Shown: positions 1,217-59,858 of the stretch, in pieces
How the letters are laid out: each line of letters opens with the position of its first letter
Position numbering within the stretch: the stretch's first letter is position 1
IMG/VR virus record: IMGVR_UViG_3300004806_000026
Location: 1 to 63,555 of that record
Source: a virus
Lineage: Duplodnaviria > Caudoviricetes
DNA length: 63,555 nt
Strand: one strand, 5' to 3'
The notes under the pieces: generated by a model
Database searches by the model: none
What the model saw: only the letters and a program-made list of their open reading frames with translations
Told to the model about the DNA's origin: nothing
Made by a program: the position numbers and the translations under genes

Positions 1217-3023
1217 AACATATTATGAGAAGGCTACGTTTAGCTTAACCAAGCTGACGACCGAGGAGTATGTGCGTGACTCACGTTTTGAAGTAATTGG
1301 CGTAGCAGTCAAAGTAAACAACGAAGAAACTGAATGGGCATCTGGCCCGCGTGAGGAAATACAACAATGGTTAACATCTTTTCCATGGGATGATTCAATC
1401 TTACTGGCCCATAACACAGCGTTTGATGGTTTTATACTAAGTGAGCGTTTTGGTATTGTGCCTAAAGTCTATGCTGATACGTTATCTATGGGTAGGGCAT
1501 TGCATGGCGTTGAAGTAGGTGGCAGTCTAGGTGCGATGGCTGAACGCTATAAACTACAAGCCAAGGGTACAGAGGTTAATGAAGCCAACGGCAAGTACAG
1601 GCAAGACTTTACACCTGAACAACTTAGTAGGTACGGCGACTACTGTATCAATGACGTTGAGATTACCCATGCGCTATTTAGTCGTATGATGCACAACGGC
1701 TTTCCAAAGAAAGAACTTAAACTTATTGATCTTACTCTACGGATGTTTATTACGCCGAAATTAGAGTTAGACTTGACTCTACTTGAACAGCACTACGATG
1801 AGGTGAGAGACAAGAAGGCTAAGTTGTTACTGGATGCTGACATAACAGACTCGACACAACTTGCGTCTAATCAACAGTTTGCGGATTTACTTAGACTCTA
1901 CGGCGTTAGTCCTCCGACTAAGATAAGCGTAACCACAGGTAAAGAAACTTTAGCATTAGCTAAGAACGATGAGGCGTTTAAAGCTTTAGCGGAGCATCCC
2001 GATATACGAGTGCAGACTTTAGTTGCGGCGAGGCTAGGTACAAAGAGTACACTAGAAGAAACTAGGACAGAACGCTTTATTGGAATTGCCAAGCGTGGTT
2101 TGATGCCAGTGCCCCTGAAATATTATGCGGCGCATACTGGACGTTGGGGTGGCGGTGACAACTTAAACCTACAAAACTTACCAAGCCGAGGCGAGAACGC
2201 AGGGAAGTTAAAGAAGGCTATAAAAGCACCCGAGGGCTATGTCATCATAGACTCTGACTCCTCACAAATTGAGGCGAGAACACTTGCGTGGCTTGCCGGA
2301 CAGAACGATTTAGTTGAAGCATTTAGAAAGGGCGAAGATGTATACAAACTTATGGCATCGGCAATCTACGGTAAGAAAGCTGAAGAGATTACAAAAGAGG
2401 AGCGGTTCGTGGGTAAGACGACTATCCTTGGAGCGGGCTACGGCATGGGGTCGGAGAAATTTAAGAACCAGCTTAAAACTTTTGGTGTTGAAGTTGAGGC
2501 TGAAGAAGCAAAGCGAATTGTGCATACGTACAGAAGTACTTACCCACAAATTGTTTCTATATGGAAACAAGCTCAAGTCGCCTTACAAGCGTTAGCTAAT
2601 GGCTCTGTAATACGTTTAGGTAAAGAAGGCGTACTACAACTTGTACCGCTTGAAAAAGCTATACGACTACCAAGCGGACTCTTGATGCGCTATGACGACT
2701 TAAGAGCAACTAGGGATGAAAAAGGTGTTCAATATATGTACAAGACTCGTCGTGGATGGAATAAAATCTATGGCGGTAAAGTAATTGAGAATGTCTGCCA
2801 AGCTATTGCACGGTGTATCATTGGCGAACAAATGATTCGTATCGCTAAGAAGTATGATGTTGTGCTAACAGTCCATGATGCGATTGCTTGTCTTGCGAAA
2901 GTTGAAGAAGCTGAAGAAGCTAGGAATTATGTCGAGGAGTGTATGCGTTGGACACCCGACTGGGCTGAAGGCTTACCAGTAAATTGTGAATCCGGTTTCG
3001 GAGAATCTTATGGAGATTGTTAA
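1191..3023 (+). CDS. polA: DNA polymerase family A with 3'-5' exonuclease domain
   Basis: Exo I LDFET, Exo II HNTAFD, motif A DSSQIEAR, motif B RFVGKTTILGAGYG, motif C TVHDA. Confidence 0.95.
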   Translation: MNLITLDFETYYEKATFSLTKLTTEEYVRDSRFEVIGVAVKVNNEETEWASGPREEIQQWLTSFPWDDSILLAHNTAFDGFILSERFGIVPKVYADTLSMGRALHGVEVGGSLGAMAERYKLQAKGTEVNEANGKYRQDFTPEQLSRYGDYCINDVEITHALFSRMMHNGFPKKELKLIDLTLRMFITPKLELDLTLLEQHYDEVRDKKAKLLLDADITDSTQLASNQQFADLLRLYGVSPPTKISVTTGKETLALAKNDEAFKALAEHPDIRVQTLVAARLGTKSTLEETRTERFIGIAKRGLMPVPLKYYAAHTGRWGGGDNLNLQNLPSRGENAGKLKKAIKAPEGYVIIDSDSSQIEARTLAWLAGQNDLVEAFRKGEDVYKLMASAIYGKKAEEITKEERFVGKTTILGAGYGMGSEKFKNQLKTFGVEVEAEEAKRIVHTYRSTYPQIVSIWKQAQVALQALANGSVIRLGKEGVLQLVPLEKAIRLPSGLLMRYDDLRATRDEKGVQYMYKTRRGWNKIYGGKVIENVCQAIARCIIGEQMIRIAKKYDVVLTVHDAIACLAKVEEAEEARNYVEECMRWTPDWAEGLPVNCESGFGESYGDC

Positions 3024-3682
3024 TGATTACATGGTCGTACTCTAGCATCAAACTATTTGGGCAGTGCCCAAAGAAATATTATCACCTAAAGGTATTAAAG
3101 GATGTTGTTGAACCCCCTACACAGGCTACGGATTATGGACAGCAATTCCATGAAGCGGCTGAGTTCTATATCAAAAATGGTACTCCATTACCGGAACCAT
3201 TCAAATTCGCAAAGAATGCCTTGGATGGACTCAAATCCATGCCGGGTGAGAAGTTGTGCGAATTCGAGATGGCATTGACCGAAGGGCTAGAACCGTGCGA
3301 TTTTAACGATCCCAAACGGTGGTGGCGTGGGATAGCTGATTTGGTTATCCTAAATGGCGAAGAAGCGAGGATTTTAGACTACAAAACAGGTCGATCTGCT
3401 AAGTATGCGGACACAGGTCAGTTAGAATTGATGGCACTAGCCGTGTTTAAGCACTTCCCCCAAATCAAAAGGGTTAGGGCTGGGTTGTTGTTTGTGATTG
3501 CTAACGCTTTCATAAAAGATAGCTACGACTCTAGCAATCAGGACAAGATGTGGCTCAAGTGGATGAAGGAGATTAGCCGTCTCAAATTTGCCCATGAGAG
3601 TAATGTATGGAATCCTAGACCGAGTGGCTTGTGCAAGAAACATTGTCTTGTGTTAGATTGTTCACATAATGGAAGGAACTGA
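3023..3682 (+). CDS. PD-(D/E)xK Cas4-like exonuclease
   Basis: WSYSS...CPKKY at the N-terminus, RGIAD...LDYKTG, QLELMA, C-terminal CKKHCLVLDC cluster. Confidence 0.85.
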   Translation: MITWSYSSIKLFGQCPKKYYHLKVLKDVVEPPTQATDYGQQFHEAAEFYIKNGTPLPEPFKFAKNALDGLKSMPGEKLCEFEMALTEGLEPCDFNDPKRWWRGIADLVILNGEEARILDYKTGRSAKYADTGQLELMALAVFKHFPQIKRVRAGLLFVIANAFIKDSYDSSNQDKMWLKWMKEISRLKFAHESNVWNPRPSGLCKKHCLVLDCSHNGRN

Positions 3683-10288: not shown

Positions 10289-10296
10289 TATTATTC

Positions 10297-10372
10297 ACTT
10301 GCAACTCTCCTGTTGTCATTTCGTTGCCTCACTAATAGGCTTTACCCCCCGACTATGTTCGGGGGTTTTTTT
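10297..10372 (+). ncRNA. candidate small RNA carrying the anti-RBS sequence UCUCCUGUUG
   Basis: Extended -10 TGTGATATTAT (10284-10294) upstream, GCAAC/GTTGC stem around TCTCCTGTTG, intrinsic terminator at the 3' end. Confidence 0.5.
10346..10372 (+). terminator. Rho-independent terminator of the replication operon
   Basis: CCCCCGA-CTATGT-TCGGGGG followed by T7, at the junction of convergent operons. Confidence 0.85.
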
Positions 10373-13300
10373 ATTCGCCGTCCATCTCTCTTTCGCTTTC
10401 TAAGATTTCTTTGCGCATTCTAGGACTAAACCTAACCCCATGCACCATCTCTTTAGTCGCACGATCTTGAGCCTTCTTAGACTTAGCCAATATATCGCTG
10501 ATAGTACCGCCGTTAATACCAAGTCCAGGGTGTTTCTCACCCAACTTAAGTAGCGCATCTCTATCTGCGTTTGCGCCTTCAGTATCACCTTTTCGCATAG
10601 CAAGATAATAACGAGCCTTAAGTTTTGAAGCCTTGGTAGATATAGCTTTATCTATACCTTTTTCTTTGGCATTGATTTCTAACTGTCTTGTGTAATCGGC
10701 AGGGGCAAAACCAAATGATTGAGCCAGTGCATTCCATGCGCTAATCTCTCCGGTAATTGGATCACCACGAAGTGTATTTGCACCTTCAAAGAAATACCGA
10801 CCGCCTTTGAGTATGTTGCTTGGTAAAGAAGGTACTAAATCTTCTAAGCCACGTTCAACATTACCTTCCGATATTTTGCTCATACCTCGACCGATACGCT
10901 CACCAATACTAAGCACAGGGCCGCCTATAGCTTCAAGAATTTGATCTTTAAATGTTGTGCCGGATCCCCCTGCTTTGTTATCTCTAACAATAAGATCGCT
11001 TAAGCCAATACGACCGGCAATAGATAGGTTAGTAAAGTACTCTAGTGGACCTTTATATAAGAACTCACCCAAGTGCTTACGAGTAACTGTATCCAAGTCA
11101 TCGTCGTCATCATCACAGAATAATGAATAGACCATAGCCGCCGCACCAAACATTGGCAAGCCTTGAGCACCAGCCATTAAAGCAGTCATACCCACAATAC
11201 CGCCTAGCTGTCTCCATGCGGCTTTTTTCATTTCGGGGGTTTCGCCGTTGGTAGCTTCTCTAAAGGCTTTCATCAACATATAGTACTGAGTAACGCCGTA
11301 ACTCTTGTACATAAACATTAATTTACCAAGACCACTTTGTGCAATCCTTGGCGCCGCAGCTGCAGACGTACTACCGTTAAGTAATTGTGCTGTGTATACG
11401 GCATGGTTAGCTGCCTGTTCTTCAGCGGCTTCACCTGTAATACCTTGTTTATTAAGTTTAGCTAACTCCAAGTTATATGTCGCAAGCATAGTTACTTCAC
11501 GGTTCATACGTTCTGTCTGTGCAAACATCCAACCAGATGCGGCATTGAGTTTAGCAAGGAACCCTGTACGAGTATCCCCAGTCAACATTTCATGCAGTTG
11601 AGAACGACCGATCTGTCCACGCTCACCTAGTACTCTAATAAAGGTAGCATACTTTTTACCGATTTTAGAGTCAGGCGCATAGTTGGCGATTGACCTTTGT
11701 ACATCTAACTTAGTAGTCTTGCCTTCACCACCAAGCAGTTTAGTAGTTGCTTCTGAGCCGCTACCCATAAATAGTTTAGACGCTTCTCCAATAGCCGCCG
11801 CAATATTAGCATCTTTGTAATGTGCTTTTAGGTACGGAGCTACTATCATCGGAACTTGAGCTAAGTTAACTAAAGCTGAAGATACGTTAAAACCTAATGT
11901 GTAGTTATACACTGCTGAAGACAGTATGTTTCCTACGGAACTTTTCTTGGGGTTAAGAATATAATCCAAACGCTTATGGAATTCGTCGTAATATGCTTTC
12001 TCAAGTTGGTTATTTGTTGAACGTCCTTCAACTTTACCTCTACCTATGTCGTCCACAAAATCACGCATATTATCAACCACACCACTTATTTGTGGGTTGA
12101 ACTTCATACTAGCTACCTGATGGATAGTACTGCGTATCTTATTCTCAAATACGCCAATAGAATCTTCTAAGAAACCAGCACGGTTGTTACGTTTTTGAAA
12201 TGACTTAGCAAATGCAGTTTCGGGTAGCGTACTAATAAATAGACGCATAATTTCGTCAGTGTTCTTGTCGTACAGCGCACTGTCTTCTGTACTTAAATTC
12301 TTTGGTTTATTAGCTTCAAGACTTTGCAATACTTCATTAACAAACGAACCAGACGGCGCACGGCGGTAATCAACTTCCGCTAACTGCGAGTAAGGTCTTA
12401 TATCTGTACCACCTAGTTTTTGCAGTTCCTCTATTCGAGCAGAGCGTTCGAGTTCAGTTTTAAACGCTTCATAGCCAGGTTGCGGTCTGTCATACTTATC
12501 TTTATATTGATATGCCAACCAGTAATCACCTTCACGACCAAGCGCAAAGTAAGGATCAATCACACCCTGCTTACGAAGTTTATCCATGATCTCTGTTTTA
12601 AAAGAGAACTTATTTTCTTTGGATAGATTCATACTATCAATGCGTTCTTGGATGACATTGCCAATCTCTTCGTACATACCCTTGTACGCATCACGCATTG
12701 TTTTATAAAGATTTTGCCAAACGGGATTTAGTTTTTTATATTCGGCATTGAGCTTATCCCAATCTTCTTCTAACCTGTTACCACTACTGTCTAATTTATC
12801 TGCGTATTCAGAACGAGGTTTTGTAGGATCAACCCCTGCAATAGTAGACTCATGTACAACAGTATTAAAACTATCTCTTTGCTCGGGTTTAGCTTTGATT
12901 GCTTTCTTAGCTTCCGCAACAACTGCATCAGCTTCGTTGTTTAATTTTTTCTTGTACCCATCTTTTTTATCTATCGTAGTGTTTAGCTTACTACCAAGAC
13001 CGTTTAAAAGAGGGTCGGCAATTTCGCCCATAGCGTGCATGGGTAAGAAAGCAAACGTGTTCGATCTAACTGTTGAGTTGCCATTTTTAATTAATTGACT
13101 TAACGCAGCTTTTTGTTTCAAGTCTATATTAGGAACGCTAGTAATTACTTTATCTATACGGCTAATAAATTGGTTTGTTTGTTCCGGTGTTTTAATAGCG
13201 TATAAAGACCCGGCATCTCTGTATGTAGGCGCAGGAGAAATAATAGTATCAATCAGTCTATCAGCCTGGTCAAATGCAGATTCAAGTTTCTTAGGCTCCA

Positions 13301-16300
13301 TACCAACCATACGGCGCAGGAAGTTACCAATGATACGCACGAACCGATCCCATGCAGAATGTTTTTGACCGTCTGGGTTAATAGACTTGAGCATTCCTCG
13401 GAATTCAGGATTTGCTTTAGCTTCGGCTACGAACTCTTGTAAGTTTGTAGATCCATATGCAGTTGGAATACTATCCTTTACTTTGTCGAATAGTTGTTGT
13501 AGCTGACGTGTTACTGGATGATTTGGGTCATCCAATACATGAGATGTTGCAGCGTGTCCTGATTCATGTAAAAGTACATGAGAGTTTAAGCCGGTTACAG
13601 AGTCAAGCTTAATCGTATTCGTTTTAGGATCAAACAGTCCTGCAACGGGTTTACCAGATTCATCTTTTAAGTTATCAACAACTTGTAGTTTAGTATCCGC
13701 GTTTACTTGGGCAAGTTGTGTTGCTAACTTAGATGTAAAACCATCTGACTGCGAGGCTAACAAGTTAAGGGCTGTCGTAAGATCACCATTCTCTAACGCA
13801 CTAATGATTACTGGATGCAGCATGTTGCTAAGCTTAGAAATAGCGTCTTGTCTTAAATTAAGACCTTCACGTTCGTCTTCCTGCCTTTGCAAGTAGTCAT
13901 CTACGGTTTCATCAGCACCCATGCCAAAGTAAACTCGGCCTAGCGTATCTACAATGTCTTGACTGTTTTTATTTACTTTCTCAAAGTATTTAAGCATATG
14001 GTCAAACTCTTTTACAGAGTCTTCGCTTAAATTAGAACGAATCCAGTCAGATGCAAGTTTAGCGTTTGCACCATTCATACCCTTAAAGAACTCGGCTTCA
14101 ACAAGCGATTCGCCAGTAGATCTAAATTGCGGAGTATCATTAACTAGATCAAAAGAAATATTAAATAGTCCATCAATGATGCGTGGCATTTTCTTAAAGT
14201 AAGTTTGCGCCGCACGTTCTGCAGGGGACTGTTCTTTTTTATTAAGTATTACACCTGCAACAGCAATATGATCATCGTCGTTTTTAACATCGTTTCTAAA
14301 GAAGTTTGTATACCCACGTTTAATAGTTTCGACTAAACCTTTGGGTGGTTTAGCATTTGGGTTAACGCTTTCTTTTTCTTCAATAGACTTTTCAATCTCA
14401 TCAAACGCACTAGACTTTATATCTTTAACAGCTCCACGAGCAGCTTGTTTTTCAGTCTTTGGGGCAGGGGTAGTCGTAGCAGTAGGCTTACTAGCTTTCT
14501 TTGCTGGTTTGGTTTTAGCTTCACCTTTAGGTTCCTCATCTAAATAAGCGTGTTCAGGAATCTCTGGTTCTTTAATTTCTGCAGGAGCTTCAGCTTTAAC
14601 TTCTTTTTTCTCTAATGTACTTGACTCATTAGCTTTTCGCTTTGCAGGTTTATTAGCAGGTGGCTCACTAGATACCACTGTTCCTGGTTTAGATTTTTCA
14701 ACTCCTCCGGCGGGTTTAGGTTCTGGCTTACTAGGTGTTGAAACGCTTGTTCCAGTTGCGGGAGTGACAGGTCTAGACCCAGTTCGTTTGGATGGTTCGG
14801 CACGTTCTGCTCCTTTTGCGATACCACCTTTAGGTCCAAAGAGTGGCTGTTGGGTTGCCAAGTTCCTAAACGCTTTCATTGCCACACCTTCAATTGCTTG
14901 CTTGGTGGACGCAGATAGGTTGGGGTTACTACGCACACTAACTAATACGTTTGCGACCTGTTGTTGGTGTTCAGGATTAGCTAAGTCTTTGTTAAGAAGT
15001 TGTTTGTAAAAACCAGATTGTTTAGTCAGGCCCGTACTATTTAAAGTATTGGCATCAAGCACAGTGCTTTCAGGTTGTGGTTCCGGCTCGGCTTCGGGTT
15101 CAACTTGTGCCGCACGCCGTTCTTGTTTGGTTGGATAGGGTACACCAGGCAGTTGTAGTTGTTTATATTCTCTCTGCCCTAATTTACCTGCCGGACCTTT
15201 TTCACCTTTTTCTTTGATGCCAGTGATTTCTGGTGTTAATTCGTTTTCAGGTGATGGAACTGTTTCAGGTGCTTCGTTCTTAGTTCTTTCTTCTTCCGCA
15301 AAAGCAGCTTTAACATCATTAGCGTGACCTATTAAACGTTTTTCAGTTTCAGTCAACTCTACATTAGCATAACCTGCATCACGCAACTTATCTTGGAATA
15401 GTTCGGCGGTATTAAGTAAATTTACATTCTCAAGCAATGGGTGCAATAAATCAAGGCGAGCCGCTTGTCTACGATCAATTTCACCTTTGGCTACTCGTGC
15501 ATCGGTTTCAGCAATAGCATCATTTAATTTAATTTGCGCTTCATCTTTTTTCTGTTGAATTGCATCTAATTGTGCTTGGTTTTCTGCAGCTACTTTTTGT
15601 TCTATAGCCACCTGCGGCCCAGTACGTGCGCCAGTTAAATCTAATTCTTGTTGTATAGGTTCAGCTTTGGGTTCTTCAAACGGCAACTCCATTTGTTGAG
15701 GTTGCGGTTCTTGTGTTTGTTCTTCTTGTATTGGCGCAAGTTGTTGTTCGCCAAGTTTAAAGTCGGGACGATATGCGTCCATAGCCGCTTGTTTTTTGGC
15801 TTCGCTTGCGGCTTGTTCTTGTTCGGCTTGATATTTTTCAACCGGAAATAGATCGGGTTGATACCCTCCAGGTGGTGGGGTGTATCCTAATTGGGGTGCA
15901 CCGGGAGGTTGTAATGCTTGTCTAGCTTGTTGTTTTGCTAATGCTTCTTGATCTTTACGATCTTGGATTTTTTGTTTGGTATCTGCAATCTTACGACTAG
16001 CTTCTACTGCAGCACCGGGAGCACCAAAGAACGTACCACCTACTGCACCTTTAACGGCAGAGGTAATAATGCTATCAATATTTTTAGTAGAGAAAAAGTC
16101 TTGTTTATCTCCCGCAATTTGAGATGCAAGAATTTGTAAAGCCTGTTGCCCGCTTTCAGTAAGAGATTCGCCACCCATTGTTTTAAGTAGCTCAACACCA
16201 AAAGCTTTCTTAAATGTGGGGGGTACGACAGTAGACTTCTCAAGCATACCTGCAGCAATACGTTTCTTACCCGCTTCACCTAATTGACTTAACATCTTTT

Positions 16301-17078
16301 CGGGTAAATATGTATCTAGTGCTGCAACCAGCGGACCAATTGTTAAAGCAATACCGGGGTGAAGTTCGCCTGTATCTTCATAGATACTTTGAAATACGTC
16401 AGGAACGTTAGTAGCTAAAGATGCGCCCCAAAGTCCAGTCTTAGAACCAATCTCTGCACCTTTTTTAGTTGCTGCCTGTCCAGCAGCATCAGCTGTAGTT
16501 CGTGCTAATAACCTATCAGCATATTCTTTACCGGCTTCTTCAGTCAAACCTTTTTTAGCTATAGTTTTAGCGGCTTGTTCTTTAACCGCTTTTTCTACGC
16601 CTTTTCTAGCGAGATATTTACCACCAATCTCACCAACCCCTGCGCCGCCAATAAAAGCTCCAATATCGGGAGCAAGTTCGCCAAGTGTTTCTGCGCCATA
16701 ACCTAATATGCTACCTGTTGGACCTGCTATATCTTTAACTGATTTATATGCAGTTGGGTTTTCTTCCTCTGCGGTTTGCATCCGTTGTTGGTATTCACCA
16801 AGCTTTTGCTTAGCGTATTCGTCTTTACCTAAGACAGATGCACCTAATGCCGGAAGCAATTCTGAAAATGTTCCTTTAGTACCTTCCCATCCACGTTTAG
16901 CGCCACCGGCAATAAGTTGCCCTATACCAAGTTCACGAGGGTCAGGTTGCCAATCCGCTTCTTGTTGCTTAGTCATAGCCGCTTGTTGCATAGCGGTAGC
17001 ACGAGCCATAATTTCATCTCTTGGCATAGAGTCAGGCATCATTACATCGCCGACCCCCGGTATAGTTACCCGTGGCAT
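10371..17078 (-). CDS. giant internal virion/DNA-ejection protein with zincin-like metallopeptidase motif
   Basis: 2235 aa at the end of the late operon; VLLHESGH (HExxH) followed by EFVAEA; mostly helical, low-complexity linker. Confidence 0.75.
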   Translation of the reverse strand: MPRVTIPGVGDVMMPDSMPRDEIMARATAMQQAAMTKQQEADWQPDPRELGIGQLIAGGAKRGWEGTKGTFSELLPALGASVLGKDEYAKQKLGEYQQRMQTAEEENPTAYKSVKDIAGPTGSILGYGAETLGELAPDIGAFIGGAGVGEIGGKYLARKGVEKAVKEQAAKTIAKKGLTEEAGKEYADRLLARTTADAAGQAATKKGAEIGSKTGLWGASLATNVPDVFQSIYEDTGELHPGIALTIGPLVAALDTYLPEKMLSQLGEAGKKRIAAGMLEKSTVVPPTFKKAFGVELLKTMGGESLTESGQQALQILASQIAGDKQDFFSTKNIDSIITSAVKGAVGGTFFGAPGAAVEASRKIADTKQKIQDRKDQEALAKQQARQALQPPGAPQLGYTPPPGGYQPDLFPVEKYQAEQEQAASEAKKQAAMDAYRPDFKLGEQQLAPIQEEQTQEPQPQQMELPFEEPKAEPIQQELDLTGARTGPQVAIEQKVAAENQAQLDAIQQKKDEAQIKLNDAIAETDARVAKGEIDRRQAARLDLLHPLLENVNLLNTAELFQDKLRDAGYANVELTETEKRLIGHANDVKAAFAEEERTKNEAPETVPSPENELTPEITGIKEKGEKGPAGKLGQREYKQLQLPGVPYPTKQERRAAQVEPEAEPEPQPESTVLDANTLNSTGLTKQSGFYKQLLNKDLANPEHQQQVANVLVSVRSNPNLSASTKQAIEGVAMKAFRNLATQQPLFGPKGGIAKGAERAEPSKRTGSRPVTPATGTSVSTPSKPEPKPAGGVEKSKPGTVVSSEPPANKPAKRKANESSTLEKKEVKAEAPAEIKEPEIPEHAYLDEEPKGEAKTKPAKKASKPTATTTPAPKTEKQAARGAVKDIKSSAFDEIEKSIEEKESVNPNAKPPKGLVETIKRGYTNFFRNDVKNDDDHIAVAGVILNKKEQSPAERAAQTYFKKMPRIIDGLFNISFDLVNDTPQFRSTGESLVEAEFFKGMNGANAKLASDWIRSNLSEDSVKEFDHMLKYFEKVNKNSQDIVDTLGRVYFGMGADETVDDYLQRQEDEREGLNLRQDAISKLSNMLHPVIISALENGDLTTALNLLASQSDGFTSKLATQLAQVNADTKLQVVDNLKDESGKPVAGLFDPKTNTIKLDSVTGLNSHVLLHESGHAATSHVLDDPNHPVTRQLQQLFDKVKDSIPTAYGSTNLQEFVAEAKANPEFRGMLKSINPDGQKHSAWDRFVRIIGNFLRRMVGMEPKKLESAFDQADRLIDTIISPAPTYRDAGSLYAIKTPEQTNQFISRIDKVITSVPNIDLKQKAALSQLIKNGNSTVRSNTFAFLPMHAMGEIADPLLNGLGSKLNTTIDKKDGYKKKLNNEADAVVAEAKKAIKAKPEQRDSFNTVVHESTIAGVDPTKPRSEYADKLDSSGNRLEEDWDKLNAEYKKLNPVWQNLYKTMRDAYKGMYEEIGNVIQERIDSMNLSKENKFSFKTEIMDKLRKQGVIDPYFALGREGDYWLAYQYKDKYDRPQPGYEAFKTELERSARIEELQKLGGTDIRPYSQLAEVDYRRAPSGSFVNEVLQSLEANKPKNLSTEDSALYDKNTDEIMRLFISTLPETAFAKSFQKRNNRAGFLEDSIGVFENKIRSTIHQVASMKFNPQISGVVDNMRDFVDDIGRGKVEGRSTNNQLEKAYYDEFHKRLDYILNPKKSSVGNILSSAVYNYTLGFNVSSALVNLAQVPMIVAPYLKAHYKDANIAAAIGEASKLFMGSGSEATTKLLGGEGKTTKLDVQRSIANYAPDSKIGKKYATFIRVLGERGQIGRSQLHEMLTGDTRTGFLAKLNAASGWMFAQTERMNREVTMLATYNLELAKLNKQGITGEAAEEQAANHAVYTAQLLNGSTSAAAAPRIAQSGLGKLMFMYKSYGVTQYYMLMKAFREATNGETPEMKKAAWRQLGGIVGMTALMAGAQGLPMFGAAAMVYSLFCDDDDDDLDTVTRKHLGEFLYKGPLEYFTNLSIAGRIGLSDLIVRDNKAGGSGTTFKDQILEAIGGPVLSIGERIGRGMSKISEGNVERGLEDLVPSLPSNILKGGRYFFEGANTLRGDPITGEISAWNALAQSFGFAPADYTRQLEINAKEKGIDKAISTKASKLKARYYLAMRKGDTEGANADRDALLKLGEKHPGLGINGGTISDILAKSKKAQDRATKEMVHGVRFSPRMRKEILESEREMDGE

Positions 17079-48882: not shown

Positions 48883-49686
48883 TTAAATTAATTTTTGGTT
48901 GCCCTGCAACGGTTTATCTATCATGCCACCCCTTTTATTTTGTACTACCGTATCCATAGGCGATGCTTGTGCAAGCTGAATATCTGGTTCTATATCTAGG
49001 TCTGGGCTTACTTGTGATATTGGTTTTGCTTGTGGCGCTGGTTTTGCTGGTGGTACATATCCTAGTTTATCTTGAATAAATTGTTTAAGTTCTTGATTTT
49101 TTGGGTGGTCTACTACATCCAATGCTTTGTTGACTCTTTGGTTATAGTTCCTTGCTGCTTCCCCTTTACCATTCCAAACTTCAAAATAAGGTTTATTTAA
49201 ACGAGTTGCAGTTTGTTGTTTATCTAAAATTGCCGCAGGAAAACCCGCTGCATATGGATCAAATCCTTGTTTGACCAACGCTTTATAAACATTCACTGCA
49301 TGTTTATTATTTTCATCAAAGTCATTAAAACCAAAATTAGAACGACCTTCTTCTAGCGCCATAGCCGTTATTTTATTAGGGTGCATCATAGGCACACCAA
49401 ATTGTTTGTGGGCTACTTTATAAGCATCCAATAGTTTGCCCATTGTTTCTTTGTCATACCCCGTATCTAACGTCTCTACACCATCTTTGGTTTTATGTGA
49501 TACACGACGCGCTGGTATGTAATTGTCTTTAGTTATTTCTTTAGTATCAGGTAAATAGTATTCAGGAGATTTAAGATTTAATCCCCTTTTAGCTGCATAT
49601 TTATAAGCCGCTGCATGTAGCTCAGGCGCAGTTCCAGGTGGGTAATATCCACCATGAATCGAATAGACTCTTTCATTTTCATCCAT
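48883..49686 (-). CDS. hypothetical protein between terL and portal
   Basis: Long ORF; AMALEEGRSNFG could be a lysozyme-like catalytic helix (weak); ends with KRGG motif. Confidence 0.6.
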   Translation of the reverse strand: MDENERVYSIHGGYYPPGTAPELHAAAYKYAAKRGLNLKSPEYYLPDTKEITKDNYIPARRVSHKTKDGVETLDTGYDKETMGKLLDAYKVAHKQFGVPMMHPNKITAMALEEGRSNFGFNDFDENNKHAVNVYKALVKQGFDPYAAGFPAAILDKQQTATRLNKPYFEVWNGKGEAARNYNQRVNKALDVVDHPKNQELKQFIQDKLGYVPPAKPAPQAKPISQVSPDLDIEPDIQLAQASPMDTVVQNKRGGMIDKPLQGNQKLI

Positions 49687-51236
49687 TAATAGTACCCCCT
49701 GTTACGCTTAGATTTAAACCATGTGACATCTTCAGGCTCATCGCTGGGGAGTCGAATAAACCCGCCCTGTCTGAACCGGGCTAACGCCATAGATGTGGTA
49801 TCAACCAAGTCATCATGTGACATAAAGGGAAATCCTGCAACTTCTTCAACAACCTCTTCAGCCCAACGTGTTTCAGGAACCCACACGAGTCCTGACTTAA
49901 TAATGTCCGATACCGCATTGAGCCTGACTAACTTGTCTCCGGTCCCACGGTGCGGCGTGAATTCTTGTACTGACATCCCAGTACGTCTTAGTTCTTGATA
50001 GAGCTGCGTTCCGGCGGATTTCTTCTCAACAATAAACGCATCAGGGGTCCATTCCCTGTACTCTTTATATGCTAATTCTTTTAACTCATGGAATTCTATC
50101 CGCTTTTTAATCGCGTTGAGTAAGATAATGTTGTATAAATTTGTTTCCTCGTTCATAAACACACCCCACGTTGTGATGGCTGTGTAGTCTGCACGGTTAT
50201 GAGTTTCTGCTGCAGCGTCAAGGGACATAATAATATATTCACAAGGCGGTGGACGCTCGGGCTTCCATATCTGCCACCACTCCCGCTTGACAACTGCGGC
50301 TTCCTCACCCGTTGGGTTTTGTTGGTACTGGGCGTTCCACTGAAAGAGCGGCATAGACGCTTTGGTCCTATGCAGTGCAGTGAGGTTATAAAACTCAGGC
50401 CAAAGTGCCTTTTCTTCCTTAGACCCCTGGTTTAATATAGCGGGAAACTCAACTACCTCGTATTGATCTGACTCTTCATTTTGAGTCATATCCTTAACTA
50501 CTCTACCCGTCAAATCATCCTGATGCCACCTAGTTTGAATGATAGCCACACAACCGCCAGGCATAAGACGAGTCCTAGCACCATATGTAAACCACTCATA
50601 GGCTTTTTCAAATACGTCAAAATTCCCATTAATGATGTCTTGCTCATTATGAGGATCATCCACAAGAAGTAAATCTGCGCCACGACCAGCCAAAGCAGAG
50701 CCAACACCGCAAGCGTAATACTCCCCACCCACATTTGTATTCCATCTACCGGCACTTTTATTGTCAGGCGCGAGGGAGACCGTTGGAAAAATTGTTTTAT
50801 AGTCTGGGTTATCAATTAAATTCCTCACTTTTCTACCAAAATCGACCGCTAAATCGGTCGTATGTGACACCATTAGCACCTTTTTGTCCGGGTTTCTACC
50901 CAAAAACCATGCTGGAAAATAGATAGAAACAAGCTGACTTTTACCGTGTCTAGGCGGAATATTGACGCAAATACGGTCTTTTTTACCCGTTGCAATCGCC
51001 ATTAAGTGGTCTGCAAGTATGCGGTGGTGCTTACCAACCTTGTAATCTGGCTGCATTTTCTTGCAAAACTCGATCAAATCATCGTAACAAGCCTTAGATT
51101 CACGTCGTTTTGTGATCTCATTGATGATTTCTTCGGCTTCAGCCTGCTCTTCTGGGGTAAATTGGTCTAAATTATCCAGTAAAAACTGTAATTCTTGGTC
51201 GTCTAACTGATCAAAAACGTTAATCTGTGCTTGCAT
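49686..51236 (-). CDS. terL: terminase large subunit
   Basis: PPRHGKS Walker A, LLVDDP Walker B, QTRWH, SLDAA, IVEKKSAG, HDDLVD nuclease motifs. Confidence 0.95.
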   Translation of the reverse strand: MQAQINVFDQLDDQELQFLLDNLDQFTPEEQAEAEEIINEITKRRESKACYDDLIEFCKKMQPDYKVGKHHRILADHLMAIATGKKDRICVNIPPRHGKSQLVSIYFPAWFLGRNPDKKVLMVSHTTDLAVDFGRKVRNLIDNPDYKTIFPTVSLAPDNKSAGRWNTNVGGEYYACGVGSALAGRGADLLLVDDPHNEQDIINGNFDVFEKAYEWFTYGARTRLMPGGCVAIIQTRWHQDDLTGRVVKDMTQNEESDQYEVVEFPAILNQGSKEEKALWPEFYNLTALHRTKASMPLFQWNAQYQQNPTGEEAAVVKREWWQIWKPERPPPCEYIIMSLDAAAETHNRADYTAITTWGVFMNEETNLYNIILLNAIKKRIEFHELKELAYKEYREWTPDAFIVEKKSAGTQLYQELRRTGMSVQEFTPHRGTGDKLVRLNAVSDIIKSGLVWVPETRWAEEVVEEVAGFPFMSHDDLVDTTSMALARFRQGGFIRLPSDEPEDVTWFKSKRNRGYY

Positions 51237-51801
51237 CAGTCGTTTCCTGGGGCAAACCTAGCTCTTTATCAAGATCTATTGTCGTAATTTCTTGTGGTAT
51301 ACGCAGTCTATTGATCTTTTCTTTAAGTGATATCACTAATTCTTCTGTAGACCTATGATTTATAGTGATTTCTGTCCTATCTGTGAACAGTCCAACGTCT
51401 GAGATCTTACCAAGCAGTTCAAGCGCTCGAATCCGCACGCGGGGATCTGGGTTTTCTGTCTCAAGAATTAGTTTATTAGTTACAACCTGGCGAATCTGAG
51501 CTGCGTTATCAACTACTTTAATAGCAAACTCTTTTAATATGCTATCTACTGCGTAATATGTTGCAGGTCTGAGCTTAGATGCTTTGGCATTGGTTAATTT
51601 TTTGTTTGCTGCAACTGGATCTTCTGCCATCGAATACGCAATTGTTTCAGCAACGGCAAGATCATCCTGCGTCGGATCCGTGTCCAAACCAAGATGTTTA
51701 GCTGTCTCACAGGCAGCTTCTGCACGACTAATAAAATCTTCAATATCCAAATCGTCGTTCGGTAATGGGACTCCAACGTCGGGTTCAATATGTATTTGCA
51801 T
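51220..51801 (-). CDS. probable terminase small subunit
   Basis: Directly upstream of and overlapping terL; RIRALELLGKISDVGLF. Confidence 0.7.
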   Translation of the reverse strand: MQIHIEPDVGVPLPNDDLDIEDFISRAEAACETAKHLGLDTDPTQDDLAVAETIAYSMAEDPVAANKKLTNAKASKLRPATYYAVDSILKEFAIKVVDNAAQIRQVVTNKLILETENPDPRVRIRALELLGKISDVGLFTDRTEITINHRSTEELVISLKEKINRLRIPQEITTIDLDKELGLPQETTDASTD

Positions 51802-51819
51802 GTCTAATGTCCAGACAAA

Positions 51820-51904
51820 TTAGGGTGGCTCACATAAAGCAGTGTGTGTTCAACAACTTACAAGGAGACTTTCAGTGCGGCGCTAACCCGCAAAACCACC
51901 CTAA
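51820..51904 (-). ncRNA. candidate three-stem RNA with anti-RBS linker in the late leader
   Basis: 11-bp closing stem UUAGGGUGGUU/AGCCACCCUAA, hairpins GCGG/CCGC and CACA/UGUG, linker UCUCCUUGUAAGUUGUU. Confidence 0.55.
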
Positions 51905-51905
51905 C

Positions 51906-52006
51906 AAGTATGAGGACTGTCTTTGTATCTTTATCCTGTGGCTGGCCTTGTCACAGCCCTTTGGACTCAGGTTAAAGCTGGGCGTCCCCCAACAATCCTC
52001 ATGCTT
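51906..52006 (-). ncRNA. candidate multibranch structured RNA
   Basis: 15-bp closing stem AAGCAUGAGGAUUGU/ACAGUCCUCAUACUU (one mismatch) enclosing three short hairpins. Confidence 0.5.
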
Positions 52007-52019
52007 CTTAGTGATGCTA

Positions 52020-52031
52020 ATTATATATACA
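52020..52031 (-). promoter_or_regulatory. probable late-operon -10 element
   Basis: TGTATATATAAT on -, a few nt upstream of the structured leader; no clear -35. Confidence 0.45.
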
Positions 52032-52302
52032 AAAAAATTTTTTGCTAGGGGGTACTATAAAAGACAAGGGGGGTGTTTCTATAAACATGTTATGACAAGG
52101 TACAGCTAAAAGTACTTAGGCCGGACCGAGTAAATTAAACTCAAAAAAATGAGCGTTGAGGGTGCGGAATAGCAATCCTACGCGGCGTATGTAACTAAAG
52201 CTAAAAAAGGGGTGTGTGGGGTGCTCGATTCAGTCTAGCTAAAATGTAGGCGATCGACTACATTATTAAAGTTTATTAAATACTATTTAATTTTATTATC
52301 TA

Positions 52303-52331
52303 TTGACAAACTATGACAATCCTAGCACAAT
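52303..52331 (+). promoter_or_regulatory. sigma70 early promoter
   Basis: TTGACA-17 nt-CACAAT with AT-rich upstream tract. Confidence 0.65.
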
Positions 52332-52394
52332 AGAGTCATCGGTTAGGAAATGTAGGGCAAACGATCATTACGCCTAATTGATAAGGAGATTATT

Positions 52395-52946
52395 ATGACA
52401 AACGTAACGACTGTGCTTTCTTCTAGTTCTTCTAAGGCTTTACTTGATGCGCTCAATGCAGATAATACGGCTAAAGCTAAATGGAAAAAAGCGAGTGATG
52501 CCTGTATCGCAGATGGTATTACTAGTGCGATGCTAGATAAGTCTAACAAGGCTTCTAATGTGGAAACAGTAATTGGGCAAGTTGAATCAATTGTTTTACA
52601 GTCATTTACTAAGACTGAAGTAGCTATATTCCAAAAGGATAAAGCTAAATGCTCAGAGGCAGAATTGGTTACTCGTAGATTTGTGCAAACCGAAAAAGCA
52701 TCAAGGTATTCTAAGATTGTCACCCATATTAAAAAGATGGAAGACAGCGAACTACTTGATGATAAGACCAAAGGCGCACAAACACCAAAAACAGGTAAGA
52801 AACCAAAGGAGGCAAAGGCTCAAGTCGCATGGTATCTTGACCATGCAATAAGAACCTTACAGGCGATGACTAACCCTGAAATTGGCGTGAGTACAGATAT
52901 TAAGACATTGCAAGTAATTGAGGCAAAGTATAAAACTACTGTGTAA
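52395..52946 (+). CDS. first early gene, basic helical protein
   Basis: TAAGGAG RBS, own promoter and terminator. Confidence 0.75.
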   Translation: MTNVTTVLSSSSSKALLDALNADNTAKAKWKKASDACIADGITSAMLDKSNKASNVETVIGQVESIVLQSFTKTEVAIFQKDKAKCSEAELVTRRFVQTEKASRYSKIVTHIKKMEDSELLDDKTKGAQTPKTGKKPKEAKAQVAWYLDHAIRTLQAMTNPEIGVSTDIKTLQVIEAKYKTTV

Positions 52947-52958
52947 TTAGCAACCCCG

Positions 52959-52989
52959 AACCCTAGGATTAAACCCTAGGGTTTTTTTT
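52959..52989 (+). terminator. intrinsic terminator (copy 1)
   Basis: AACCCTAGG-ATTAAAC-CCTAGGGTT with T8 tail. Confidence 0.85.
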
Positions 52990-53010
52990 CGTCTTGATTA
53001 TTTATTATTT

Positions 53011-53042
53011 AAACCCTGGGGCTTTGCCCTGGGGTTTTTTTT
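53011..53042 (+). terminator. intrinsic terminator (copy 2)
   Basis: AAACCCTGGGGC-TTT-GCCCTGGGGTT with T8 tail; same TTCGTCTT..TTATTTATTAT tail as copy 1. Confidence 0.8.
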
Positions 53043-53059
53043 CGTCTTAATTATTTATT

Positions 53060-53226
53060 ATGTAGTCGTTAGACTACATTGATACCAGTGTTTGTCGTTA
53101 GCGTAGAGCACAGGGTTAGGGTTTCGCAGTCGGCTCGGCTTAGTTATCAGCAACATATTACCGAACAATGTAGGCGATCGACTACAAATTGATACCAGTG
53201 TTTTTCGTTAGCGTGGAGCACAGGGT
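53060..53226. repeat. about 58-bp direct repeat pair, each copy starting with the palindrome
   Basis: 53060-53116 and 53168-53226 share TTGATACCAGTGTTTKTCGTTAGCGTRGAGCACAGGGT. Confidence 0.85.
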
Positions 53227-53352
53227 CGATTTGTTCTACCGAACAATATTAGGGTTAACGAGTATATTGTTCGTTTTCAATTTGTTCCGACACTTTAGTA
53301 TTACATTGTTCGGTTTCAATTTGTTCGGTTTTGATCTGTATTGTTCGGGCAT

Positions 53353-53575
53353 ATTGTTCGGTCGTAAGTCATTGATTTTAAAGGAATGTTCGATTTGTTC
53401 GTATTGTTCTTGCGTTTTGACACACCATGTCTATAAATTTCTGAAACCAGTTTTGGCAGAGCCTAAACGCAGATTACATTCTTTTTCGTTTTTAAAACCC
53501 ATATACTTTTTTTTAAAGAACAAATCGAACAATACGAACATATTCGCAAAATCAACAACTTACGAAAAGAACAAT
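53353..53575. repeat. about 58-bp imperfect inverted repeat with TTGTTC iterons and IHF-consensus sites
   Basis: Arms 53353-53410 and 53517-53575; WATCAANNNNTTR at 53365-53377 (-) and 53550-53562 (+). Confidence 0.8.
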
Positions 53576-53665
53576 ACCCCCCTAAAAACGAACAATAGAA
53601 CAATATACTATTTAATAATATAACTTAGTACAAATTAGAACTTACCACAAAACATCACTATTTAC

Positions 53666-53694: not shown

Positions 53695-53795
53695 ATGTAT
53701 TGTAGGTGGGAATTGTTTAGAACATATTGTTCTACCCCCTGCAGGATGTAGTCGGTCGACTACATTGTGATAAACAACTTAACAGGAGAATCGTT

Positions 53796-57662: not shown

Positions 57663-57722
57663 CAACAACGAGGCGGATGTAGTCGGTCGACTACATCCAA
57701 ACAATTTAACAGGAGAAATAAT

Positions 57723-58895
57723 ATGTTAGCAATAGGCAAACCACTAACCGCACAAGAGCGGTTGTTCAAAGCTACGACTGCAATCGTAGGTCAAGATGAG
57801 TTCATTGCACTAGCCGGTGTACTTATGATCGGTGAGAAGAAGATAGTTGATGGACTACCGACTGCGTGTACCAATGGTCGTGACGAAGCGTATGGTCGTG
57901 AGTTCGTGGAATCATTAACCGATCCCGAATTTAGATTCTTAATACTACATGAGTGCTATCACAAAATGTATCGTCACTTAACCACATGGAAACATCTTTA
58001 TGAGGAAGATGCCCAACGTGCCAATCGTGCGTGTGACTATGCGATCAACATCCGACTAGCCGATACCGATCTAGGTAAGAAGGGTTGGATCAAGATGCCC
58101 GAGAACGGACTCATTGACGAAGCGTATCGTGGTATGGACGTACACGAAATCTATAAGTTGTTACCGCCTGGCAATGGTGGCAAGAGTAAGGGTGATGGCG
58201 AGGGTGACAGTCCATTCGATGATCACGACTGGGAAGGTGCACAGGAGATGAGCGAGGAGGAAGCCGAGGAGTTGAAGAAACAAATTGACGAAGCAATCCG
58301 TCAAGGCTCAACACTTGCATCCAAGACAGGGGCGAGAAGTTATGGTGACTTACTTAAGACCGAGCAAGACTGGCGTGAACTACTGCGTGAGTTTGTGTCA
58401 ACAACTTGTGCAGGACATGACTATTCAACATGGCGCAAACCTAATCGTAGATATGTGGGTATGGACATCATCATGCCAAGCGCAATCAGCGAGACACTAG
58501 GTGAGATCGTGGTAGCTATTGACACATCAGGATCTATCGGTCAACGTGAACTAGAAAAGTTCTTAACAGAAATCGTGGGTATCTCTGAACAAGTAAAGCC
58601 GAGCAAGGTTCGCATAATCTATTGGGACACTAGCGTGTGTTCGACTGAGGTGTATCTACAAGACGAGCTATACAAGATACCCGCATCTACTAAGCCCGAG
58701 GGTGGTGGTGGCACAGACGTGGCGTGTGTACCGATATACATGAACGAGCAAGGCATCAAGCCCGAGTGTGTGGTTGTGTTAACCGATGGTTACTTAGGTG
58801 GGACATGGGGTGTGTGGAACGTGCCAGTATTGTGGTGCATCATTGACAACCCAAGGACAACTGCAAGTGTTGGAACAACGATACATCTGGACTAA
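57723..58895 (+). CDS. metallopeptidase-like plus VWA domain protein (DUF2201-like)
   Basis: TACTNG, LHECYH (HExxH), DTSGS MIDAS, GGGGTD, LTDG. Confidence 0.88.
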   Translation: MLAIGKPLTAQERLFKATTAIVGQDEFIALAGVLMIGEKKIVDGLPTACTNGRDEAYGREFVESLTDPEFRFLILHECYHKMYRHLTTWKHLYEEDAQRANRACDYAINIRLADTDLGKKGWIKMPENGLIDEAYRGMDVHEIYKLLPPGNGGKSKGDGEGDSPFDDHDWEGAQEMSEEEAEELKKQIDEAIRQGSTLASKTGARSYGDLLKTEQDWRELLREFVSTTCAGHDYSTWRKPNRRYVGMDIIMPSAISETLGEIVVAIDTSGSIGQRELEKFLTEIVGISEQVKPSKVRIIYWDTSVCSTEVYLQDELYKIPASTKPEGGGGTDVACVPIYMNEQGIKPECVVVLTDGYLGGTWGVWNVPVLWCIIDNPRTTASVGTTIHLD

Positions 58896-58940
58896 TGTAG
58901 TCGACCGACTACACATCAATAATTTAACAGGAGAATAACA

Positions 58941-59837
58941 ATGGGATACTATGGACTAAATACATTTGACGAAGTGGCTAAACGCTACATGGATACTAAG
59001 CCCTTGCGTGGTAAACGTGCAAGTGAAGATATTAGACCTTTGGGCACTGGCTTCGAACGCCGTTACACTTGGAAACGTATTATTCGTATCAACGAAAACA
59101 AATATGTTCTGAATGATGGTAACAACATCTTTTGGGCGCACAACACATTGCAGTATGAAGATACCGCACCAATCGTATGGGAACGCAAAGATGGGCGTGA
59201 CTACATCACAATACGAAACAACTGGAACAATGGCAGTGCCGTATCTCGCTATAAGTTCTTACAGCAATGGTTACCAAAAGGTATGAATTTTACATTCAAC
59301 CAACAAGGCAAACATTATGTAGTTTACAAAGGCGAACTAAACTTCTTGCCAAAACCCATACTCAATGTAGACTGGGGGAAGAAGATATATACGGTAGAGC
59401 GTGATAGCAAGATCGTGTACGAGGAACGCTATGGTGAATTCATCAGAGCTAATGAGTTGCAACCCTTTGTCACAAGACGTAAAGACAAAGCATTGGTAGC
59501 CGAGTATGAACCCAAGATAGAAGAATTTTGGATATGGATGCAGATTATGTTGCCAATACTGGGGGACATGGACTACGACAAGAAAGCCACATATGCAAGT
59601 AAGCTTTGCACAAGCGGGATATGGTATTGGAAAAAATATACACCACAAGAAAAAGTGCGTGAAGCACTTAACAACCCCGAGTCTGAGTATCGGGTGGCGT
59701 TAGCAGTATGTTGTGCAGATGAGATAGGTGCGTATAAAAGTGGCACAACGGGGTTCACACCAAAACCAGATTCGCTTCAAAAGTTAAAGGAGTTGATGCG
59801 TAAGATAGCGGGTTTGTATGCAGTGGAATTGAAATAA
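58941..59837 (+). CDS. hypothetical early protein
   Basis: Long ORF with AACAGGAGA RBS. Confidence 0.75.
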   Translation: MGYYGLNTFDEVAKRYMDTKPLRGKRASEDIRPLGTGFERRYTWKRIIRINENKYVLNDGNNIFWAHNTLQYEDTAPIVWERKDGRDYITIRNNWNNGSAVSRYKFLQQWLPKGMNFTFNQQGKHYVVYKGELNFLPKPILNVDWGKKIYTVERDSKIVYEERYGEFIRANELQPFVTRRKDKALVAEYEPKIEEFWIWMQIMLPILGDMDYDKKATYASKLCTSGIWYWKKYTPQEKVREALNNPESEYRVALAVCCADEIGAYKSGTTGFTPKPDSLQKLKELMRKIAGLYAVELK

Positions 59838-59858
59838 CAACTTAACAGGAGAGTAAAC

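Follow-up and report, generated by a model that had tools for sequence, protein, structure and literature searches.

A predicted four-way-junction RNA in a phage late leader and its covarying relatives

The late leader and its folded element

The IMG/VR virus record IMGVR_UViG_3300004806_000026 carries, at positions 51820-51904, an element that had been flagged from the letters alone as a structured RNA with a guide-like linker. The whole stretch of DNA that was analyzed, hereafter the window, is the complete virus record (63,555 bases, 42.6% G+C). Genes on the - strand begin with an open reading frame (ORF) at 51801-51220 and end at 10371, which makes a late operon of ~41 kb. Those on the + strand (early) run from 52395, past the record end, up to 10101. 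The early and late orientations diverge and the element is therefore placed in the gap between them, 19 nucleotides (nt) upstream of the ATG of the first late ORF. The leader of ~210 nt has two parts, here called module A' and module B, with module B (the flagged element) forming the second half, before the ORF at the small-terminase position. The features of this region are as follows.

51894..51904, - strand: 5' arm of the closing stem P1 of module B, UUAGGGUGGUU, pairing with AGCCACCCUAA
51877..51891, - strand: hairpin P2 of module B (GCGG, loop GUUAGCG, CCGC), from family covariation
51845..51876, - strand: variable middle arm or linker, ACUGAAAGUCUCCUUGUAAGUUGUUGAACACA, the 'guide' of the original prediction; it varies between subfamilies in length and sequence
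51831..51844, - strand: hairpin P4 of module B in the family register, CAC (51844-51842), loop UGCUUUAU, GUG (51833-51831)
51820..51830, - strand: 3' arm of P1, AGCCACCCUAA, pairing with UUAGGGUGGUU
51903..52009, - strand: module A', assigned by homology; lower stem AAGAAG/CUUGUU, invariant CAU, upper stem GAGGAUUG/CAGUCCUC, variable apex at 51920-51992
52020..52047, - strand: predicted promoter-like site, read from the sequence; TAGCAA (52047-52042), 16-nt spacer, TATAAT (52025-52020)
51220..51801, - strand: first late ORF, 193 amino acids, at the small-terminase position, overlapping the start of terL
49686-51236, - strand: terL, the second late gene (phrog_38, E = 6.5e-106), with the portal gene next

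On the - strand, P1 comprises 11 base pairs including one U-G pair, and the same position is a C-A mismatch on the + strand. The closing stem and the hairpin GCGG-GUUAGCG-CCGC are present as the original prediction had drawn them, with the G-U pair fitting only the - strand, and the minimum-energy fold of the - strand element contains both. The middle arm is poorly defined in this fold. The folding energy of the single sequence is not significant (z = -1.74 for the - strand and -2.06 for the + strand); the structural evidence is comparative. The 193-residue ORF that follows the leader matched no PHROG or Pfam family, and reading of the sequence found no Shine-Dalgarno motif before its ATG.

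A covarying RNA family and its genomic contexts

Homologues were collected with a seed pattern of the two hairpin sequences separated by a 15-45-nt gap, which returned 56 IMG/VR stretches, and a covariance model was built from 42 distinct copies using a hand-drawn structure. A search of 139 sources with the model gave 116 matches of at least 38 bits, after which 17 duplicate sources were dropped. The final set comprises 81 sources with 99 copies, of which 93 are distinct; scores range over 38-83 bits, and nearly all of the copies are on uncultured phage contigs. Individual loci are cited below by numbers with the prefix L. The weakest family match in the first model search scored 43.5 bits and the next match 28.6 bits, and the 35 matches at or below 28.6 bits are accounted for by the 15-mer bait that had fetched those loci.

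Across the 93 distinct copies, 94.4% of alignment cells are standard pairs, and compensatory changes on both sides are found in 14 of the 18 pairs (398 cells). The covariation score of 0.61 compares with 0.157 for shuffled alignments, with 0/500 shuffles reaching it, and with at most 0.12 when the pairing partners were slid. All nine modelled P1 pairs have changed on both sides across the family. Because the alignment had been fitted to a hand-drawn structure, RNAalifold was run independently on the same alignment; it recovered P1, P2, and P4 unchanged, and of the 20 pairs that it predicts 16 are compensated. Variants of the P2 stem include GUGG/CCAC, ACGG/CCGU, and UCGG/CCGG, while the loop GUUAGCG is unchanged in 90/93 distinct copies. 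This invariance is partly by design, as all loci were fetched with the exact P2 15-mer, and to that extent it counts against our interpretation rather than for it. The bait played no part for the second copies of these loci, in which the P2 stem varies and the loop is kept.

The family also decides the register of P4. A hairpin CACA-CUGCUUUA-UGUG, as drawn in the original prediction, can be formed in the window, but the homologues support a three-pair CAC/GUG register instead. The longer register pairs in 78.5% of cells, shows no compensatory change, and loses its outer pair in 63/93, whereas the shorter one pairs in 100% of cells and its middle A-U becomes G-C in 5/93 distinct sequences. Across the family the P4 loop reads UGCUNNAU, in which loop positions 5 and 6 vary. 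The suggested loop-loop pairing AGCG/UGCU can likewise be drawn; all eight of its positions are invariant or nearly so, and covariation is thus uninformative on it.

The alignment contains 67 G-U or U-G cells and 16 A-C or C-A cells, an excess that favors the strand of the downstream genes. Among phages that differ in their packaging and replication genes, some 26 positions show no change or almost none. The interval between P2 and P4 spans 20-44 nt. In several subfamilies the middle arm is itself a hairpin, with differing stems beneath the same loop (L007, L046, L122, L134, L126, L103, L127), and the whole therefore takes the form of a cloverleaf-like four-way junction. The layout is that of a tRNA-type cloverleaf, in that four helices surround one junction and the two loops beside the closing stem are conserved; the junction strands are not conserved across the family. 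Two IMG/VR contigs closely related to the window (L001 and L002; first late protein 97-99% identical) retain the core of the element with a closing stem of GAAGCGG/CCGCUUC as compared to UUAGGGUGG/CCACCCUAA in the window, both arms having changed. As judged by this comparison of sequences, module B is a four-way junction made up of a covarying P1, P2 with its invariant loop GUUAGCG, a variable middle arm, and P4. The claim of a structured RNA on the - strand is borne out by the covariation and the G-U bias, with the RNA predicted to lie in the leader between the promoter-like site and the first late ORF; a scaffold of closing stem and two hairpins is conserved and the stretch between the hairpins varies. 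The observation that opened this work is partly confirmed and largely right, and its structure is far better supported than a reader of the single sequence could have known.

A cmscan of 51700-52200 against all 4227 families of Rfam 15, at E up to 10, returned two unrelated weak matches only; at that threshold neither the C4 model nor any self-cleaving ribozyme family of Rfam matched this interval. No Rfam gathering score was reached in the window, nor in 29 related loci apart from tRNAs, and the searches accordingly turned up no known family with an unrelated function. When compared by blastn with 50,697 GenBank phage records, the element gave nine short matches (E 0.8-10), none covering 80% of the query, and the interval 51500-52400 gave no match. 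The exact two-motif pattern was found in two stretches among the genomes of 185,579 species, both in one Variovorax paradoxus record, and the Variovorax paradoxus genome yielded three covariance-model matches. A model search of 151 genomes of the Variovorax order found two with a match, one being the same Variovorax paradoxus genome. In that record ('chromosome 2') the copies lie at 1886-1971 (-) and 2945-3033 (+) of L140 and at 3021-3105 (+) of L141; two module B copies diverge ~1 kb apart, and the neighboring ORFs are without a Pfam match. The window holds no second copy, the next best match with filters off scoring 9.4 bits (E = 1.7). From these searches, module B appears to belong to a large phage RNA family that is absent from Rfam 15 and new to curated libraries. 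The motif may be among the 8,495 structured-RNA candidates that Fremin et al. (2023; PMC10690425) obtained from IMG/VR. Their catalogue draws on the same source collection and the same kind of evidence, covariation, and includes tRNA-like candidates as well as candidates upstream of terminase and resolvase genes; its passages on these candidates neither describe the motif of module B nor assign any function.

The contexts of module B are varied. A promoter-like -35/-10 pair (three mismatches at most) ends 0-12 nt upstream in 12/80 distinct contexts as compared to 35/5000 random positions, so that promoter-like sites directly upstream are enriched ~20-fold. Copies head an Sf6-type small terminase gene (L082), a helix-turn-helix protein and large terminase (L126; L134 by position only), an operon of a YdaS/Cro-like protein and ParB (L029), a DUF1376 replication gene (L132; L034 by likeness of the first residues only), and phrog_13900 genes (L007 and L060; L075 by likeness only). 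A terminator-like hairpin or a further conserved module precedes some of the copies. In 7/81 sources the model match is followed on its own strand by a tRNA gene after 5-8 nt, and in an eighth source the distance is 71 nt; any tRNA gene at all is found in only 10/81 sources, and module B is linked to it in eight of those ten. In one subfamily (L066, L070, L078, L123, L026, L100, L028) the module is followed at once by seven to eight T and then by a new promoter. Two copies are present in 18/81 sources. No protein family is common to the neighborhoods, the most frequent neighbor occurring in 18/65 sources. The specificity for late leaders that had been proposed is contradicted by these early-operon, late-operon, tRNA-adjacent, and T-run copies; module B is no late-leader device and behaves as a portable RNA gene or domain.

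At L066 2026-2180 (+), and likewise in L043, L041, and L013, the stretch between the two module B copies has a consensus promoter (TTGACA, 17 nt, TATAAT) followed by a long hairpin of ~110 nt ending in a T run, by appearance a further small RNA gene. Past the second copy, some 330 nt in loci of this type hold only ORFs of ~40 codons, and the first part of this stretch is conserved in other loci.

The promoter-like block of the window is identical in L001 and L002 and scores three mismatches in all in L002 and L079; an automated promoter scan did not list the 52020-52047 site. Module B starts 3 nt past the -10 box in L001 and L002 and ~110 nt from the predicted transcript start in the window, where it stands behind module A'. 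The latter is missing from L001 and L002, which are ~110 nt shorter between the promoter-like box and the stem. Module A' is a diverged copy of a second module, A, with the consensus CAACACG-CAU-GGGGAUUG, a variable apex, and CAGUCCCC-AG-CCGUGUUG. Among 24 distinct copies with scorable ends (the window and 23 others), the upper stem GGGGAUUG/CAGUCCCC is paired in 24/24 and the CAU is invariant. One public lake metagenome contig of the same lineage has the apex 51920-51992 exactly swapped for 39 other letters, other public lake metagenome contigs hold an A'-like module between two different module B copies, and in L047 and L008 the module B core is nested in an A-type stem. This replacement and these differing arrangements indicate that modules and tips are evidently swapped between phages. 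Module A was seen in the window, L008, L015, L022, L026, L027, L031, L066, L101, and others, with a phage-specific apex of ~2-80 nt; that of L101 holds a T-arm-like GGTTCGATTCC. Two stems split by an internal loop recall the layout of phage RNase III sites.

The middle arm and early ribosome-binding regions

The linker between the hairpins had been read as a guide against early ribosome-binding sites (RBSs). Its + strand copy, AACAACTTACAAGGAGA (51852-51868, +), does resemble a motif of the early region, AACAACTTAACAGGAGA, which occurs verbatim at 53773 and 59836, with one mismatch at 57700, and with two at 58918. This motif has five matches at up to three mismatches in place of 0.21 expected, and 0/100 shuffles reach five. 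The likeness to the linker copy is 15/17 at two sites and rises to 20/24 at 53766. The four early sites, found by sequence comparison, are as follows, and each lies 6 nt upstream of an ATG.

53766..53789, + strand: early ribosome-binding region with the closest likeness to the linker's + strand copy (20/24)
57700-57716, + strand: similar early site
58918-58934, + strand: similar early site
59836-59852, + strand: similar early site

A pairing role of some kind for the middle arm is favored by the enrichment of the motif YUCC, which occurs in the arm in 17/32 sequence clusters as compared to 5.1 +/- 2.0 expected, with 0/2000 shuffles reaching 17; these clusters share ancestry and are not fully independent. 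CUCCUU-like and GUUGUUGAA-like motifs of the window linker also recur elsewhere (GUUGUUGAA-like in L024, L137, L008, and L047). Such motifs being common to other subfamilies, these parts of the window linker are no free-varying guide.

In an effort to locate targets, 65 distinct middle arms were compared by RNAduplex with the Shine-Dalgarno start regions of their own loci and with 600 foreign ones, accessibility being ignored, and the flanks covered were 5-15 kb per relative. Several results weigh against a guide role. The comparison of own and foreign partners was flat (2/65 arms at p < 0.05, four at p < 0.1, and 34/65 at p < 0.5), and the best own duplex of the window, at -20.4 kcal/mol, has p = 0.68 over 73 sites. 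Close relatives L001 and L002 have changed P1 more than the middle arm, and a scaffold-plus-guide RNA predicts the reverse. The linker of L136 (contig of L002) differs at about nine positions, uncompensated: its homologous early site reads AAACATCTTAACAGGAGA, and the match falls to 16/24 with a gap, as compared to 20/24 in the window (hand count). YUCC is missing from 15/32 clusters, and the C/U-rich motif of some subfamilies takes part in a stem within the arm itself. For seven of the 73 own start sites of the window the duplex energy is lower than the 5% quantile of foreign sites (binomial p = 0.07), and for none is it lower than their 1% quantile; 1% of random 40-mers from the window bind as well as -18.8 kcal/mol. 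Four members with similar linkers (L024, L137, L097, L089) have no comparable RBS match in 12-15 kb of flank. Exact antisense matches of the middle arm within its own locus are 8-13 nt long, about chance level, and the longer ones inspected lie inside genes or on the element's own other strand. The linkers of the homologues are thus no better matched to the translation starts of their own loci than to foreign ones, and the idea of a guide against early RBSs is not borne out by the relatives compared. Nonetheless, the sequences suggest that the arm of the window could reach four early RBSs, a reading that is at best unproven.

Some further candidates were set aside. An 11-nt antisense match in L022 beside GGAGGATG is a single case and was given no weight. 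A three-codon + strand ORF (GTG CGG CGC TAA behind AAGGAGA) was considered as the cause of the RBS-like letters and rejected, the middle T of its start codon being present in only 32/93. The element was also not taken for a miniature inverted-repeat transposable element or an attC site, as its inner part is conserved and its terminal repeats vary, the reverse of those elements.

Other features of the window were noted in passing. The early + strand proteins include a family A DNA polymerase, a PD-(D/E)XK nuclease, a SNF2 helicase, and a DUF927 protein; a scan of ten large early proteins turned up no RNA polymerase. The first early ORF (52395-52946) is followed at once by two 53-nt units in tandem at 52959-53064 (+), each a GC-rich hairpin and eight T, which resemble a pair of intrinsic terminators closing off an immediate-early gene. 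A near-perfect palindrome of 18-20 nt (ATGTAGTCGGTCGACTACAT and variants) recurs in the early region, mostly just upstream of an RBS (52244-52265, 53060-53081, 53168-53189, 53746-53767, and before the starts at 57723, 58941, and 62034), and could function as an operator, as a hairpin for processing, or as a terminator. Dense short direct and inverted repeats at 53255-53620 (TTGTTCGGTTTCAAT, GAACAATA, and others), within or over the ORF 53189-53623, resemble iterons and are possibly a replication origin. The late protein of 2235 residues at 10371-17078 (-) matches DarB-like antirestriction families in its C-terminal part (phrog_10089, E = 1.7e-69). A second anti-RBS RNA had been proposed at 10.3 kb, where in 10290-10372 (+) a hairpin and then seven T come after CAACTCTCCTGTTG. 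From the - strand, this place reads AACAGGAGAG, 6 nt, and GTG, opening a frame of ~23 codons (hand reading), and it may simply be the RBS of a small - strand ORF.

Interpretation and comparison with known systems

We tentatively favor, at rather less than even confidence, the explanation that module B is a self-contained, tRNA-like small-RNA module on the - strand that is trimmed by the host and whose variable arm is the working part. The two invariant loops stand at the positions of the tRNA D- and T-loops and would probably dock on each other. The resulting 'elbow', together with the long P1, would form the recognition surface for some conserved host factor, for which the tRNA-maturation machinery (RNase P, 3' trimming) is the likeliest candidate. 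Trimming by these host enzymes is what we infer from a topology that mirrors tRNA and from the position directly before tRNA genes. The module would be cut from the ~210-nt late leader, or define its end, and could be left as a small RNA stable enough to last. The middle arm may be an exchangeable functional part; its anti-Shine-Dalgarno-like C/U-rich motif, present in about half of the subfamilies, may pair with RBS regions in trans in the manner of c4. Placements that vary from the start of an mRNA to the end of a small transcript and the vicinity of tRNA genes fit a self-contained domain better than a cis-acting signal. Structure and placement are what was observed, and the function is what we infer from them. 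Set against this explanation are the results that ARAGORN calls no tRNA in the window and that Rfam tRNA (RF00005) has no match in 51700-52200 at E up to 10, and also that neither a cleavage site nor a 3' CCA is conserved in the family.

The same observations can be arranged in other ways. The module might instead stay on its transcript as a cis-acting 5' leader, by which the host polymerase would read through terminators over the 41-kb late operon or the 5' end of the mRNA would be protected. The late genes all lie on one strand (51801 to 10371), several copies per genome head different operons, and in 12/80 contexts only a few bases separate the module from the predicted start of the transcript; the ten early proteins scanned without an RNA polymerase among them imply dependence on the host enzyme, and a conserved host target would explain the invariant loops. 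We regard this as unlikely, although a serious contender, because the run of seven to eight T and the new promoter right after the module in one subfamily suit the end of a small transcript and not an anti-terminator, other copies stand directly before tRNA genes, and the module of the window lies ~110 nt from its predicted start, behind A'. Alternatively, a tRNA mimic could act as a decoy without any base pairing, its P2/P4 surface binding, blocking, or recruiting a host protein such as a tRNA-cleaving defense nuclease or a tRNA-modifying or processing enzyme, with the middle arm as a spacer. The near-invariant positions shared by otherwise different phages, the cloverleaf layout, the linkage in eight of the ten sources having a tRNA gene, and the lack of a detectable complementary target in the loci scored are all consistent with such a decoy. 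A mere spacer would not be expected to carry conserved, subfamily-specific loops (e.g. UGUGCAAAUAC over covarying stems) or the YUCC enrichment, no protein family is shared by the neighborhoods (18/65 sources for the commonest), and we know of no partner protein for module B; we consider the decoy unlikely.

The guide against early genes in its literal form would be a scaffold-plus-guide RNA arising with the late transcript and shutting early genes down through pairing of its linker with early RBSs; this reading is in our estimate improbable. It draws on the complementarity of the linker to the repeated early motif AACAAYTTAACAGGAGA (15/17 at two sites, 20/24 at the 53766 site), on the placement of four sites before ATG codons of + strand genes, and on the slight excess of own start sites below the foreign 5% quantile. 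Besides the unremarkable duplex energies, the uncompensated change of both linker and target in L136, and the four similar linkers that lack such sites, it must contend with the family's occurrence outside late operons. Were module B a new type of self-cleaving ribozyme, serving to trim phage transcripts at the borders of operons and tRNAs, this would account for the small size (80-100 nt), the invariant nucleotides in two possibly docking loops, the variable outer stems, and the several copies per phage beside tRNA genes, habits that small self-cleaving ribozymes show in phages. The cores of ribozymes are usually conserved, whereas the junction strands here are not, and no known ribozyme family matched at E up to 10, which makes this very unlikely. 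Least probable, and in our view very remote, is a signal at the DNA level, a single-strand hairpin for priming, packaging, or site-specific recombination. The element does adjoin terminase genes here and replication genes elsewhere, modules are exchanged between phages, and G-T pairs are tolerated in folded single-stranded DNA too. The ~20-fold enrichment of promoter-like sites upstream, the shared strand with downstream genes and tRNAs, and a position that differs between genomes speak for RNA instead.

The original interpretation is partly supported: it has the right kind of element, a scaffolded RNA in a phage leader, and not the right specifics, late specificity or a guide against early RBSs; the structure is real, and the finding is narrowed to it, with the early-gene guide left at best unproven. 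If module B is as it looks, it is a well-supported new family of phage non-coding RNA with strong conservation and clear covariation. Its placement at transcript starts and before tRNA genes would tie phage small RNAs to host tRNA processing, a tie so far resting on a few classical cases such as c4 of phage P1 and CI of phage P4, and a natural tRNA-shaped scaffold with an exchangeable arm, if true, would be of interest to RNA engineers. A broader and quite doubtful speculation is that freshwater phages share a kit of exchangeable RNA cassettes, a tRNA-shaped scaffold (B) with swappable anticodon-arm inserts and a hairpin scaffold (A) with a swappable apex. Both would be strung with tRNA genes, punctuate transcripts, and pass between unrelated phages; the tRNA-shaped scaffold would hijack host tRNA maturation so as to be processed and stabilized, and the inserts would be programmable anti-Shine-Dalgarno regulators or decoys against tRNA-directed defenses of the host.

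The analogy to cloverleaf RNAs excised from a leader (c4 of phage P1, CI of phage P4) is reasonable as architecture only. The c4 RNA of phages P1 and P7 is cut by RNase P from a leader at the 5' end of a long closing stem, and its exposed loops pair with an RBS region (PMC5320573; PMC4919922). Module B would similarly be a small multi-arm RNA in a phage operon leader with a long closing stem, its processing being predicted by analogy. In the account of PMC5320573, c4 has three stem-loops, and the P1 and P7 versions differ at 4 nt with matching changes in their targets; module B is a four-way junction, and its one informative relative shows no such matching change. Module B also has other invariant sequences, is not matched by the C4 model, and occurs in early, late, and tRNA contexts. 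By these sequence comparisons, it is not a member of the c4 family.

The CI RNA of phage P4 is derived from a leader, processed in a tRNA-like manner, and controls the transcript of its own phage, pairing with repeats in the same leader to bring about termination. The window differs in having no complementary repeat of the linker in or near the leader, and we know of no sequence motif in common between P4 CI and module B. The put RNA of phage HK022 is a promoter-proximal folded RNA of two stem-loops that occurs in more than one operon per phage and requires no phage protein; like the Bacillus EAR element, it alters polymerase toward terminator read-through. Module B is promoter-proximal in 12/80 contexts and would likewise need no phage protein if it acted on polymerase. 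It differs from put in being a closed four-way junction, some copies of which are followed by terminator-like T runs or tRNA genes, and an anti-terminator role makes little sense where a copy runs into a terminator-like T run.

Relative to tRNA itself, module B has a P1 of 9-12 pairs rather than 7 and a P4 of three pairs with an 8-nt loop, it is without an anticodon loop or an encoded CCA, and it is called by neither ARAGORN nor the Rfam tRNA model. The likeness lies in the cloverleaf topology and in two conserved loops at the D- and T-loop positions. The T4 species 1 and 2 RNAs are small stable RNAs encoded within a phage tRNA cluster, and module B resembles such RNAs in lying on the same strand as tRNA genes, 5-8 nt before them.

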